Shown piece after piece: positions 35,830-53,110 of a DNA stretch of 54,189 nucleotides. The DNA is taken from the NCBI RefSeq assembly GCF_003334335.1, contig NZ_QOWQ01000032.1, one strand, 5' to 3'. The notes under the pieces are model-generated. The model was not told the DNA's origin, made no database searches, and saw only the letters and a program-made list of their open reading frames with translations. Origin of the DNA: Escherichia coli (GTDB taxonomy: Bacteria > Pseudomonadota > Gammaproteobacteria > Enterobacterales > Enterobacteriaceae). Position 1 is the stretch's first letter. Each line of letters begins with the position of its first letter. A program made the translations under genes and the position numbers.

Positions 35830-36039
35830 TGACCAAAAACCTCTTTGCGTCACATTTTTACAACAATTATTGCATAGAAAATTAATGCTATTGGAATGAA
35901 GAGAGTAACGAATGGCTAAACTGGCTAACCCGAATGACGAAAAATTCTGGAAAACAGCACGCAATTTCGTGAAGTGATTATTTTCGTCCCTAAGGAAACC
36001 TTATAGGATGCCTGCGGGTGCCTGAGACTTTCTGTTTTC

Positions 36040-36103
36040 AGGCTAACCGGGAATCAGAAAGACGAAGGCCCCGACCGATATTTCTATCAACCGAGGCCAA
36101 CGA

Positions 36104-36130
<27 letters not shown>
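36040..36130 (-). ncRNA. sokB: expected SokB antisense RNA overlapping the mokB/hokB leader (boundaries approximate)
   Basis: Inferred from hok/sok family architecture. Not independently delimited from sequence. Confidence 0.3.
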
Positions 36131-36311
<181 letters not shown>

Positions 36312-36382: not shown

Positions 36383-36556
36383 TCAGTTAGTGCATGTTTT
36401 TTTCGATGCACTAATAGAACCATCATTACAGACAAATTTGCCGCCTGCCGTACAGTGTGAGATCCCCCCTTTCGAACCAGAACAGGGTTTGCGCCCGGCA
36501 TCGGCATAAAAGGAAACAAGCGTTCCCATAAACAAAATAAGTGCCAGTTTTTTCAT
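36383..36556 (-). CDS. ydcA: small secreted Cys-rich protein (57 aa)
   Basis: Manual translation of minus strand: MKKLALILFMGTLVSFYADAGRKPCSGSKGGISHCTAGGKFVCNDGSISASKKTCTN. Below the ORF-track cutoff. Confidence 0.75.
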   Translation of the reverse strand: MKKLALILFMGTLVSFYADAGRKPCSGSKGGISHCTAGGKFVCNDGSISASKKTCTN

Positions 36557-36726
36557 ATAACCTCCATGGTTTATCGAATCTTATGTTCGATTTGAACGTT
36601 ATACGCTGGTTTATTTTGATACCGTTGATGAGATCAAAGATCGGGTGAATTGATTAAAAATAAGCCAGATGGACGTATGGGCAAGGATTATGGTTTTATT
36701 TATCATACAAATAAATATAATAGGCG

Positions 36727-36790
36727 CTTCCGATGTAGACCCGTATTCTTCGCCTGTACCACGGGTCGGTTTTAGTACAGGCGTTTTCTT
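36727..36790 (+). ncRNA. rydC: RydC Hfq-binding small RNA (64 nt)
   Basis: cttccgatgtagacccgtattcttcgcctgtaccacgggtcggttttagtacaggcgttttctt matches RydC as I recall it. Pseudoknot-capable pairs gacccg/cgggtc and cgcctgtac/gtacaggcg, U-tract terminator, and tataat -10 element 6 nt upstream at 36716-36721. Confidence 0.8.
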
Positions 36791-36800
36791 TAAATATCCT

Positions 36801-37331
36801 TCAGGAACGTTTACGCGGCATCATGCGTAGAAGTGTGTTGTCCTTCCAGAAATAGTGGTGTGCCAGTGCAGCCGCAGCGTGCAACCCGATGACAAAATAT
36901 CCCAGATTCGCCAGCGTTTCATGCCACGACTTTAAGCTATCTACCCGTTCGAAATTGGCCTCTGAAGCGTAAGGCATCGTCAAACCAAACGCAAACCACG
37001 GGTTGCCCCGGTTATACATCATCACCAAACCAATCACTGGCAGCGCAATAAACAGGAGATAAATCACCAAATGTCCCAAATGCGCCAGTCCCGTCATCAT
37101 CGGTTTTGGCTTAGGTATAATCGGCGGGGTTGGGTATTTCAGCCTTAACAAAAGACGAACGACCATCAGCACGAGAATTGAGATGCCACAGGAAACATGA
37201 ATCATGTTGATGAGTGGCCGATCGCTACGTGGGAAGAAACCACGAAACTCCATTGCGCAATACGCTGCGATAACCAGTAAAAAGACCAGCCAGTGAATGC
37301 TGATTTGTAACCTTGAATATTTATTTTCCAT
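36801..37331 (-). CDS. cybB: cytochrome b561
   Basis: Track ORF is over-extended by 12 codons. ATG at 37329-37331 gives MENKYSRLQISIHW... of 176 aa with 4 TM helices and haem-ligand histidines. Confidence 0.9.
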   Translation of the reverse strand: MENKYSRLQISIHWLVFLLVIAAYCAMEFRGFFPRSDRPLINMIHVSCGISILVLMVVRLLLRLKYPTPPIIPKPKPMMTGLAHLGHLVIYLLFIALPVIGLVMMYNRGNPWFAFGLTMPYASEANFERVDSLKSWHETLANLGYFVIGLHAAAALAHHYFWKDNTLLRMMPRKRS

Positions 37332-37507
37332 AACATTTCCTGCTTTAACATAATTTTCCGTTAACATAACGGGCTTTTCTCAAAATTTCATTAAATATTG
37401 TTCACCCGTTTTCAGTACGTTACGTTTCACTGTGAGAATGGAGATTGCCCATCCCGCCATCCTGGTCTAAGCCTGGAAAGGATCAATTTTCATCCGAACG
37501 TTCCTGA

Positions 37508-38520
<1,013 letters not shown>

Positions 38521-50782: not shown

Positions 50783-53089
50783 TCAATACAACTCATCAAG
50801 TTTTCTCATCGCTTGTTCCCGTATTGCGCGCGTCTTACCGTTAAGCGCCAGCTGGCGGACTAAATCCAGTTCAGGGTTAACAAGCTCTAACGCCAGCAAA
50901 GGATCACGTTTCAGCCTCGCCTTTAATACATCAACTGGAAAACGGGGATTATTCATCGCCACAATCCACCACTCGGGATCAATTTCTGCCGCCAGTACTG
51001 CAGGCGGTGTGTGGCGGTTGTTAAGTGCGCCGAACTTGAAAAATGTGAGATTGCTTTTCGCCAGTGTACTCCACCATATACGATCCGGTTGTTTTGCCAG
51101 TACATCCAGTTGTGCTAACGCATCGGGGTCTAGTGCATAATAAACACGTAACGCTTCGTCAACCTGCGCACGGGAACTGTTTTCCTGCCTCAGAAAAAAC
51201 TTCGCCCAAATATCATTGCGTGGCGTGTTTTGCTGTAATTCCTTGAGAACAACAGCGGGTAAATTATCCCAACTAATTAATGCACTCTCTAAAAAGTCCC
51301 AGTCGTCCGAACGTATCAGGGCGGTGGCATTTAATAGCATCTGGTCATCAACTTCGCCGTGGCTAATCAGCTCAGACAAAATCATATCAGCGCTGGTTTC
51401 ATATGCATCTGAATCTGCTTTCGGATTATTTTTCCGATGCGATAAAGCACGTTGCCAAATTTTTTGTTTCATCGACGTGCTCAGATACTGATTTTTCGCC
51501 AGATTACTCCACCCTTCAGGATCGTTGAAACGTGTCAATAACCGTTGTAAAGCAGCGTCAGAGTGAATTACCTGCATATCCCGACAGCAAAAGTAGGCCG
51601 GGGATTTTTTCTCCATCCTTTTAACAAAATTAAACTGTAAGTTATCTGGCAATGCTAAAAATAACACACGTATTAGATCATCGTCATTCTCGAATTTTTG
51701 GTATAAATAGCCTGCAACTTTGTCACTCTCTTGTGGCGTCATCCGCAACAATTGACCATGGTGTTTCATCTCTGCCAGCTTGAACGCTAAGCTTGTGACA
51801 ACATTGTTTGATGAATCGTTCGCCAACTGCATTGCCTGATTGTAGGTGAGTTGTCCTCCAGCACCGACCTGACGAATAGAGGAATCATCACTGCGGATAT
51901 AGCCATCAATAATGGATTCAGGCAATAACCACGCATCTTTATAAAGCTCCTGAATGATCATATCCCAATCTCTTTTCGCCAGAGTCATGACGATATCCAG
52001 AGGGAGATTTTCACGTAGCGCAAGATTCAACGGACCGACACCATCAGGTAGACGACTCATTCGCGTCATTATTTCGACAGAGAGCGGTTCACGGTCGAGC
52101 AACCCCAGAACAACAGGCTGGTAACCCAATTGCTGATCGGTCAACTCCAGAATCTCATTGTCAGGCATATATCTCGCCATACTTTCAATCGTTTGTTCAT
52201 CATTGCTATTAATAAGTTGTTTGCGTAGGTTAGCTGAAATTCCTTTAAGCCTTGGGAGAGTTCGCATTACGGCAAGATCAAATGTCGCAATGTCTCGTCC
52301 TTCAAATGCAGCAACTTTGCCTTCATCCAGCATTTGCAATTCTTGCACTAACTCAGGAGAAGGCTTAGGGCGAAACAGCGCTTCTTTTTTCATCTGATTA
52401 CAGACATTCCCTGCCATGCGAATATTGCTTCGCTTAAAAATTTCTTTCAGAGCATCTTCATCATTAATTAGCCCCCAATAATATGCATCAGGATTTATTA
52501 TCATCAGCGCTTTTTTGACATTTTCAGTGTCATGTTTGTCACTCGCACGGACCATGAATTCACTATTTGTCGAAGACGCAACAACAGGTGCAATTATGTC
52601 ATTGATAAATATCCCACGCGCATTAATACTCCCCTTAATCGTAGACGGATTATCGTAATATGAGTCGATAAATACCAGTCCACTTGCATTTATCGAACCG
52701 GTAATTAACAGTGGTGAATCCGCAACTATATTCGTTGCCGTCACGTTACCGAGAATAACCCATGGATTAGAAAGAGAGAAAGTGGAAATATTACCTTTGA
52801 CTGTCAAATTCCCAAGAACAATCAATTTTTGATTACTCTCTATATTACCTTCTACCACTAAATCGCCACGATGCACTTTCCAGTTCGATGCAGATAAACC
52901 GAAGGGGACAAGATTCACGCTACTGTTGATAGCTTGTTCAACTTGTTGTTTATCTTCAGCGGTAGCCGCAGAAAAAAATGATTCAATATCAACTGCATTT
53001 GCAACACATCGAAGTTCCGCCTGTACTGGTAGACTCAGCATAAACAGGGGCAGTAAACGTATCCAGCCGCAATTCCTGGCCTTAAACAT
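50783..53089 (-). CDS. ydbD: large secreted protein of unknown function
   Basis: ATG at 53087-53089 gives MFKARNCGWIRLLPLFMLSLPVQA (signal peptide), 768 aa. Confidence 0.85.
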   Translation of the reverse strand: MFKARNCGWIRLLPLFMLSLPVQAELRCVANAVDIESFFSAATAEDKQQVEQAINSSVNLVPFGLSASNWKVHRGDLVVEGNIESNQKLIVLGNLTVKGNISTFSLSNPWVILGNVTATNIVADSPLLITGSINASGLVFIDSYYDNPSTIKGSINARGIFINDIIAPVVASSTNSEFMVRASDKHDTENVKKALMIINPDAYYWGLINDEDALKEIFKRSNIRMAGNVCNQMKKEALFRPKPSPELVQELQMLDEGKVAAFEGRDIATFDLAVMRTLPRLKGISANLRKQLINSNDEQTIESMARYMPDNEILELTDQQLGYQPVVLGLLDREPLSVEIMTRMSRLPDGVGPLNLALRENLPLDIVMTLAKRDWDMIIQELYKDAWLLPESIIDGYIRSDDSSIRQVGAGGQLTYNQAMQLANDSSNNVVTSLAFKLAEMKHHGQLLRMTPQESDKVAGYLYQKFENDDDLIRVLFLALPDNLQFNFVKRMEKKSPAYFCCRDMQVIHSDAALQRLLTRFNDPEGWSNLAKNQYLSTSMKQKIWQRALSHRKNNPKADSDAYETSADMILSELISHGEVDDQMLLNATALIRSDDWDFLESALISWDNLPAVVLKELQQNTPRNDIWAKFFLRQENSSRAQVDEALRVYYALDPDALAQLDVLAKQPDRIWWSTLAKSNLTFFKFGALNNRHTPPAVLAAEIDPEWWIVAMNNPRFPVDVLKARLKRDPLLALELVNPELDLVRQLALNGKTRAIREQAMRKLDELY

Positions 53090-53110
53090 ATGCACTCCAT
53101 GCCATTAAAA

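Follow-up and report, generated by a model that had tools for sequence, protein, structure and literature searches.

Does the short intergenic stretch between ydcA and cybB in this Escherichia coli window (the whole 54,189-nt stretch of DNA that was analysed) carry the small RNA gene rydC, and is the end of that gene tied to the end of cybB? The first-pass annotation had placed a 64-nt RNA with pseudoknot pairing and a U-tract terminator here, named it RydC, and proposed that a convergent 3′ overlap could couple the termination of rydC and cybB. The identity and coordinates of the element, its pairing and covariation, its promoter and operator elements and the seed-cfa complementarity come from the present analysis, and what is said of Hfq binding, repression by YieP, activation of cfa and the mapped 3′ end rests on published work with the identical K-12 sequence.

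Identity and setting of the element

The whole window was scanned against Rfam 15 at gathering thresholds, which returned two hits in total. One of these, the only RydC match in the window, was to RF00505 at 36727-36790 on the plus strand, exactly where the first-pass annotation had put it and on the strand opposite cybB. It scored 92.5 bits (E = 4.4e-17) against a gathering score of 48 bits and covered the model from end to end (1-64/64). The first-pass annotation had named the lack of a RydC hit here as its refutation, and the hit is present. Moreover, the locus is 100% identical to that of K-12 MG1655 at every aligned base over 190 nt (window 36641-36830), a stretch that takes in ~90 nt upstream of rydC, where its promoter lies, and 40 nt beyond it towards cybB. 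In MG1655 this sequence is annotated as 'ncRNA rydC b4597, small regulatory RNA RydC' at 1491442-1491506, between cybB (b1418) and ydcA (b1419), and the ORFs of the window agree with that placement, as had been proposed. The K-12 annotation is of a 65-nt form, reaching window 36791. The two loci agree in the sequence and length of the RNA, in its orientation relative to cybB and ydcA, in its promoter, pseudoknot and terminator and in where its 3′ end maps; there is no difference between them, and they are one and the same gene. We put the probability that the feature is the known gene rydC, in its K-12 allele, at about 97%. The element in the window is thus ordinary and already explained, RydC being already known. 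Of 5426 complete E. coli genomes, 5417 matched a 1.2-kb query around rydC.

In the six-frame ORF list the cybB stop codon is at 36801-36803 on the minus strand. This leaves 10 nt (36791-36800) beyond the 64-nt form of the RNA, the distance originally given, or 9 nt beyond the 65-nt form. On the other side, the region between rydC and ydcA spans 170 nt and houses the YieP site described below. The gene is indeed invisible to an ORF track, as had been remarked: PGAP-annotated RefSeq genomes with identical DNA list no feature at the position of rydC. The practical value of the locus is one of annotation, since a reading of E. coli genomes by ORFs alone overlooks a working regulator of acid resistance and of the make-up of membrane lipids. 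As a discovery it matters little, RydC having been studied since the mid-2000s and its Hfq crystal structure, its main target cfa and its repressor YieP all having been defined. The features of the locus are collected in Table 1.

Table 1. Features at and around rydC. Positions are those of the window; nt numbers are those of RydC, and negative numbers are relative to the transcription start.
Feature	Position	Strand	Basis and remarks
sok (RF01794)	36016-36167	+	Rfam, 109.7 bits
mokB ORF, 55 aa	36104-36271	+	ORF list, K-12 annotation
hokB ORF, 49 aa	36162-36311	+	ORF list, K-12 annotation
ydcA, 57-aa predicted periplasmic protein	36383-36556	-	ORF, annotation; divergent from rydC
Probable YieP (GntR/FadR-type) operator, palindrome ATTTATCATACAAAT, -29 to -15	36698-36712		YieP motif match, conservation
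-10 hexamer TATAAT of the rydC promoter, -11 to -6	36716-36721	+	Sequence; kept in orthologous promoters
rydC, ~64-nt sRNA gene	36727-36790	+	RF00505, identity to K-12 b4597, Term-seq 3′ ends
Single-stranded 5′ seed, nt 1-11, CUUCCGAUGUA	36727-36737	+	Unpaired in Rfam consensus; seed function per PMC4337610
S1 5′ arm, nt 12-18, GACCCGU	36738-36744	+	Pairs with nt 35-41; invariant in 7 distinct orthologues; fixed by the search pattern
S2 5′ arm, nt 25-33, CGCCUGUAC	36751-36759	+	Pairs with nt 49-57; 4 compensatory pairs; 100% of cells paired
S1 3′ arm, nt 35-41, ACGGGUC	36761-36767	+	Invariant in all orthologues, outside the search pattern
S2 3′ arm, nt 49-57, GUACAGGCG	36775-36783	+	With the 5′ arm, forms the terminator hairpin
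U-rich 3′ tail UUUUCUU, terminator T-tract and Hfq proximal-face site	36784-36790	+	Sequence, Term-seq; Hfq binding per PMC4337610
cybB, cytochrome b561 / superoxide oxidase, 176 aa	36801-37331	-	ORF, K-12 and RefSeq annotation; convergent neighbour, outside the sRNA

Pseudoknot, covariation and 3′ end

The pseudoknot pairing that had been noticed in the 64-mer resolves into two crossing, perfect helices. Helix S1 joins nt 12-18 with nt 35-41 by 7 Watson-Crick pairs (-10.5 kcal/mol evaluated alone), and helix S2 joins nt 25-33 with nt 49-57 by 9 (-13.8 kcal/mol evaluated alone). As S1 and S2 cross, they form an H-type pseudoknot in which 16/16 pairs are Watson-Crick. When the 64-mer was shuffled, only 6 of 5000 shuffles contained a crossing pair of perfect helices with 6 bp or more in each. 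The minimum free energy fold of the 64-mer, computed with nested pairs alone, contains S2 but not S1 and is no more stable than shuffles (z = -0.48), a value that is uninformative because nested folding cannot represent a pseudoknot. The case beyond chance rests on the covariance-model score, the crossing helices, the covariation and the identity to K-12, and not on folding energy.

Orthologues were sought with an exact 18-mer, CTTCCGATGTAGACCCGT, the first 18 nt of RydC, in one genome per species. The scan returned 11 loci in Escherichia, Salmonella and Citrobacter and one chance match that is not RydC. Rfam confirmed RydC in nine orthologous loci (65-90 bits), belonging to three Escherichia lineages, S. 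enterica arizonae and five Citrobacter species, and the RNAs are 63, 64 or 66 nt long. The chance match, in a metagenome-assembled genome of an uncultured Clostridia bacterium (L007, 583-600), has neither an Rfam RydC hit nor a pseudoknot context and lies in what appears to be G+C-rich coding sequence. Because the 18-mer fixed the seed and the 5′ arm of S1, the set leaves Klebsiella- and Enterobacter-type variants unsampled and puts covariation of S1 beyond reach.

The covariation alignment held 10 sequences (7 distinct rows). Standard pairs filled 100% of the cells in both helices, as against 27-47% when the 3′ partners were slid by 1-3 columns. In S2, double-sided changes among Escherichia, Salmonella and Citrobacter were found at four pairs (G-C to A-U, U-A to C-G, A-U to G-C and C-G to U-A). 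Cells changed on both sides numbered 11 in S2, a count reached in none of 500 shuffles, and the slid controls gave 0-2. S1 is invariant and 100% paired across the 7 distinct rows and so carries no covariation information; what this comparison lends to S1 is conservation only. Both of its arms are highly conserved in the Rfam consensus, and mutations G37C/G39C destabilise RydC in vivo (PMC4337610).

Two positions distinguish alleles. The K-12-type allele of the window has G42 (window 36768), whereas other Escherichia lineages, Salmonella and Citrobacter have U42; since G replaces U there, the optional eighth S1 pair of the Rfam model, A11-U42, is unformed in the window. At nt 58 (36784) the window has U, compared with C in the other Escherichia lineages and in four of the five Citrobacter species; U is also found in S. 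arizonae and C. koseri.

RydC shares with RybB and OmrA/B, which are 5′-seed, Hfq-dependent sRNAs of enterobacteria, a short primary transcript, a conserved single-stranded 5′ seed, a Rho-independent terminator and an Hfq-bound U-tail. It differs from them in that they are simple stem-loops whereas RydC is a compact H-type pseudoknot, and in that its best-known effect is activation (of cfa), unlike the repression exerted by sRNAs of the RybB and OmrA/B type.

At its 3′ terminus RydC reads GGCG-UUUUCUU, the U-rich run following S2 immediately, which bears out the U-tract terminator that had been proposed. In MG1655 Term-seq data (PMC7815308 supplement) the primary rydC 3′ ends are the minus-strand positions 1491443 and 1491442, which score 1.25 and 2.4 million. 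These correspond to window 36790 and 36791, that is, to the end given in the first-pass annotation and to the end of the 65-nt K-12 form. Transcription would accordingly stop at 36790/36791 on an intrinsic terminator made of S2 as its stem and UUUUCUU as its tract. A simple terminator scan omits it, as the loop is 15 nt long and the scan is limited to 8. The same scan reported an internal hairpin at 36752-36766, which was treated as a chance finding.

Promoter, candidate operator and targets

The expected start of rydC transcription is C36727, under a sigma-70 promoter that has a perfect TATAAT but lacks a recognisable -35 element. A generic promoter scan gave no rydC promoter, there being no -35 match, and the promoter has been described in the same terms, with a perfect -10 and no obvious -35 (PMC11340327). 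The hexamer is TATAAT in 10 of 11 orthologous promoters, the exception being C. koseri (TATACT). When the 11 promoters are aligned they diverge freely beyond ~35 nt upstream, and ATTTGTCATACAAAT and the -10 box are nearly invariant.

In the window the conserved block upstream of the -10 box reads as the palindrome ATTTATCATACAAAT, whose reverse complement, ATTTGTATGATAAAT, agrees with all high-information positions of the YieP motif atTTGTaTGAcaAAT. That motif was obtained by ChIP-exo by Nguyen-Vo et al., and rydC and ydcA are both among the YieP targets (PMC7642389). For the motif core TTGTNTGANNAAT, 0.21 occurrences would be expected in the 54-kb window, which has two. Each of 10 orthologous rydC loci from other species carries a single copy, placed at the equivalent point of the promoter. 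The second match in the window, TTGTTTGATGAAT at 51804-51816 on the plus strand, lies inside a 770-aa minus-strand ORF (50783-53095), has flanks that are not clearly palindromic and is probably due to chance.

Genetic work by Bianco et al., in which no binding site was defined, found that YieP represses rydC ~20-fold in E. coli and 7.5-fold in Salmonella (PMC11340327). In K-12, RydC was detected by northern blot only in a yieP deletion and was otherwise barely detectable (PMC11340327). Judged by motif and conservation, the palindrome at 36698-36712 is a probable YieP operator. Repression would act by occlusion, since the palindrome sits where RNA polymerase must contact the spacer and the -35 region. 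Its position at -29 to -15 in Escherichia, Salmonella and Citrobacter offers a concrete candidate operator for the YieP repression shown genetically in 2024. With the place of the -35 and spacer thus occupied, YieP would keep rydC almost silent under standard laboratory conditions, and relief of YieP, for example through repression of yieP translation by FnrS, would turn rydC on. Two variants of the palindrome were seen. One half-site in the window reads ATTTAT where most other lineages have ATTTGT, a G-to-A change shared with E. coli E69, and in C. koseri the centre of the palindrome is reversed in orientation (ATTTGTATGACAAAT).

Once transcribed as an independent gene, rydC would yield a ~64-nt, Hfq-dependent, trans-acting sRNA in which the H-type pseudoknot (S1 of 7 bp, S2 of 9 bp) leaves nt 1-11 single-stranded. 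The conserved seed CUUCCGAUGU agrees with the Rfam consensus at every position; its invariance across our orthologue set is circular, the search pattern having included the seed. RydC is recovered with Hfq, its stability requires both Hfq and the pseudoknot, and its half-life is lower in an hfq mutant (PMC4337610). In the Hfq-RydC co-crystal (3.48 Å) the 3′ U-tail lies in the proximal/central channel of Hfq, the loop steps U23/U24 and U46/U47 touch the Hfq rim and the 5′ seed is free (PMC4337610). These steps fall at window 36749-36750 and 36772-36773, respectively. Hfq bound to the U-tail and to the loop U-U steps would thereby present the 5′ seed to its targets.

A search of the K-12 cfa leader found that nt 3-11 of RydC (UCCGAUGUA) can form 9 contiguous base pairs, one of them G-U, with positions -107 to -99 from the ATG (-12.6 kcal/mol). 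An equal duplex energy was obtained in 13 of 1000 shuffled leaders. sRNAs of this kind commonly pair over so short a seed, and the match taken alone does not make a strong case. Apart from its effect on cfa, RydC is reported to repress yejABEF, a result attributed to Antal et al. in 2005. Experimentally, cfa is activated when RydC base-pairs with the long cfa mRNA isoform, an interaction that stabilises this mRNA and prevents Rho-dependent termination (PMC11340327). The seed would pair with this isoform ~100 nt upstream of the start codon and shield it from decay and from Rho-dependent termination, so that more cyclopropane fatty acid synthase is made. Repression by RydC has been described for trpE and pheA, where it is modest (PMC11340327), and for csgD (PMC3985669); in the proposed mechanism these three would be the other mRNAs that RydC modestly represses.

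The convergent cybB gene and the wider neighbourhood

cybB is convergent with rydC in the window and in all nine orthologous loci in which both genes were located. The distance between them varies widely, being 10 nt in the window and 8 nt in three Escherichia lineages, 37 nt in C. koseri, 48 nt in Citrobacter sp. Awk 4 and sp. R56, 80 nt in S. arizonae, 169 nt in Citrobacter sp. NCU1 and 1.65 kb in C. amalonaticus. In Citrobacter sp. Awk 4 the gap contains a canonical terminator on the cybB strand, GCCCCGCCTTTGCGGGGT then TTTTTCTTTG (that is, GCCCCGCCTTTGCGGGG then TTTTTT), and similar cybB-strand hairpins are visible in the gaps of Citrobacter sp. R56 and C. koseri.

The first-pass annotation had spoken of a convergent 3′ overlap that could couple the termination of rydC and cybB. 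The genes do not overlap but are separated by 9-10 nt. Mechanistic coupling through a shared, bidirectional terminator would nevertheless suit the closeness of the cybB stop codon to the end of RydC, and the complement of S2 on the cybB strand still folds into an 11-bp hairpin. The terminator scan, moreover, detected no separate intrinsic terminator for cybB between its stop codon and ydcA, with no minus-strand terminator-like site between 36800 and 36557. However, read on the cybB strand, the hairpin leads into AAGAAUA and not into a U-tract, so that by sequence it is a one-way intrinsic terminator. Under the conditions of the Term-seq dataset, no cybB-strand 3′ end was recorded at or after the hairpin (PMC7815308 supplement); the sole cybB-strand 3′ end named there for cybB/rydC, whose score of 1024 is weak beside the 1.25-2.4 million of RydC, is at K-12 1491416, equivalent to window 36817, inside the cybB ORF. 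The tight spacing is also specific to Escherichia, with dedicated cybB terminators in Citrobacter sp. Awk 4, sp. R56 and C. koseri, and in Klebsiella rydC does not adjoin cybB, being found between other genes entirely (PMC11340327). The locus thus resembles the bidirectional intrinsic terminators of convergent genes in having one hairpin in the short gap of a convergent pair, and is unlike them in having a U-tract on the rydC strand only and in that no cybB 3′ end maps there. Literature searches returned nothing relevant on rydC-cybB termination coupling or on a bidirectional terminator at this locus. We consider coupling very unlikely; it is neither needed for the termination of RydC nor conserved.

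The lack of a recognisable E. coli cybB terminator before rydC bears on two further readings. Read-through RNA from cybB would be fully complementary to RydC, and on the cybB strand a weak 3′ end precedes that of RydC by 26-27 nt, both of which would suit an RNA that is mainly cis-antisense to the read-through 3′ UTR of cybB, or a gene with which cybB read-through interferes, instead of a trans-acting regulator. Against this, RydC and the cybB coding sequence have no bases in common, conservation extends to the seed and the pseudoknot of RydC but not to its distance from cybB, and the trans targets have been verified by compensatory mutations (PMC4337610, PMC11340327). We find this reading highly improbable, and a cis-antisense role is at most an add-on to the trans function. 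Going by the gap sequence, cybB transcripts of E. coli may read through antisense to rydC. A speculative scenario, which we think unlikely, is that Escherichia cybB lost the terminator kept in Citrobacter and that its read-through gives rise to anti-RydC RNA or to head-on polymerase interference, linking cybB to RydC output. If true, expression of cybB, a superoxide oxidase, would be tied via RydC to cfa and membrane lipid remodelling, and such collisions, or processing of the duplex, could have left the weak 3′ end at 36817. A small protein, encoded by the plus-strand ORFs 36669-36830 (53 aa) or 36650-36775 (41 aa), can be given practically no credence. Both ORFs are present in the six-frame list, yet translation of either would have to begin before the transcription start (36727), within the promoter/operator, the lengths of the orthologues preserve no frame, and the variation takes the form of paired-base covariation and is not codon-like. 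The small-ORF reading was rejected on these grounds, and the trans-acting sRNA RydC is the reading that we retain.

The weak minus-strand 3′ end at 36817 falls 13 nt short of the cybB stop codon, which a transcript with this end would not contain. A small hairpin, UACGC-N8-GCGUA, is found just before it. The 3′ end may stem from degradation, from pausing or from interference by convergent transcription of rydC.

Several other observations concern the surroundings of rydC and cybB. In C. koseri NCTC10786 the cybB adjoining rydC (L011, 8765-9295) appears to be broken, tblastn recovering it in pieces (aa 1-52, 81-147 and 142-176). A fluoride riboswitch (RF01734, 50.2 bits) is present at 3981-4053 on the minus strand of the same locus, ~4.6 kb from C. 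koseri rydC, and is unrelated to it. In at least 8 complete genomes an IS1A is inserted upstream of cybB, between cybB and gapC, leaving rydC untouched; an example is E. coli RCAD0514 (L015, 1345-2042), and the equivalent region of the window, ~37400-37500, is without the insertion. Further on, gapC (glyceraldehyde-3-phosphate dehydrogenase) is a pseudogene at ~37520-38520 on the plus strand, its frame split into the ORFs 37520-37636, 37868-38272 and 38269-38520. RefSeq describes it as frameshifted with an internal stop, and in K-12 it is pseudogene b4493.

On the other side, just beyond ydcA, is the hokB/mokB/sokB type I toxin-antitoxin locus (36016-36311), which is annotated likewise in K-12. 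The window and K-12 each have one sok/hok-type hit near rydC, compared with two in E. coli E69, where they stand in tandem (L005, 1742-1894 and 2238-2389; 108.7 and 111.4 bits), which suggests that the hok/sok module of E69 has been locally duplicated.
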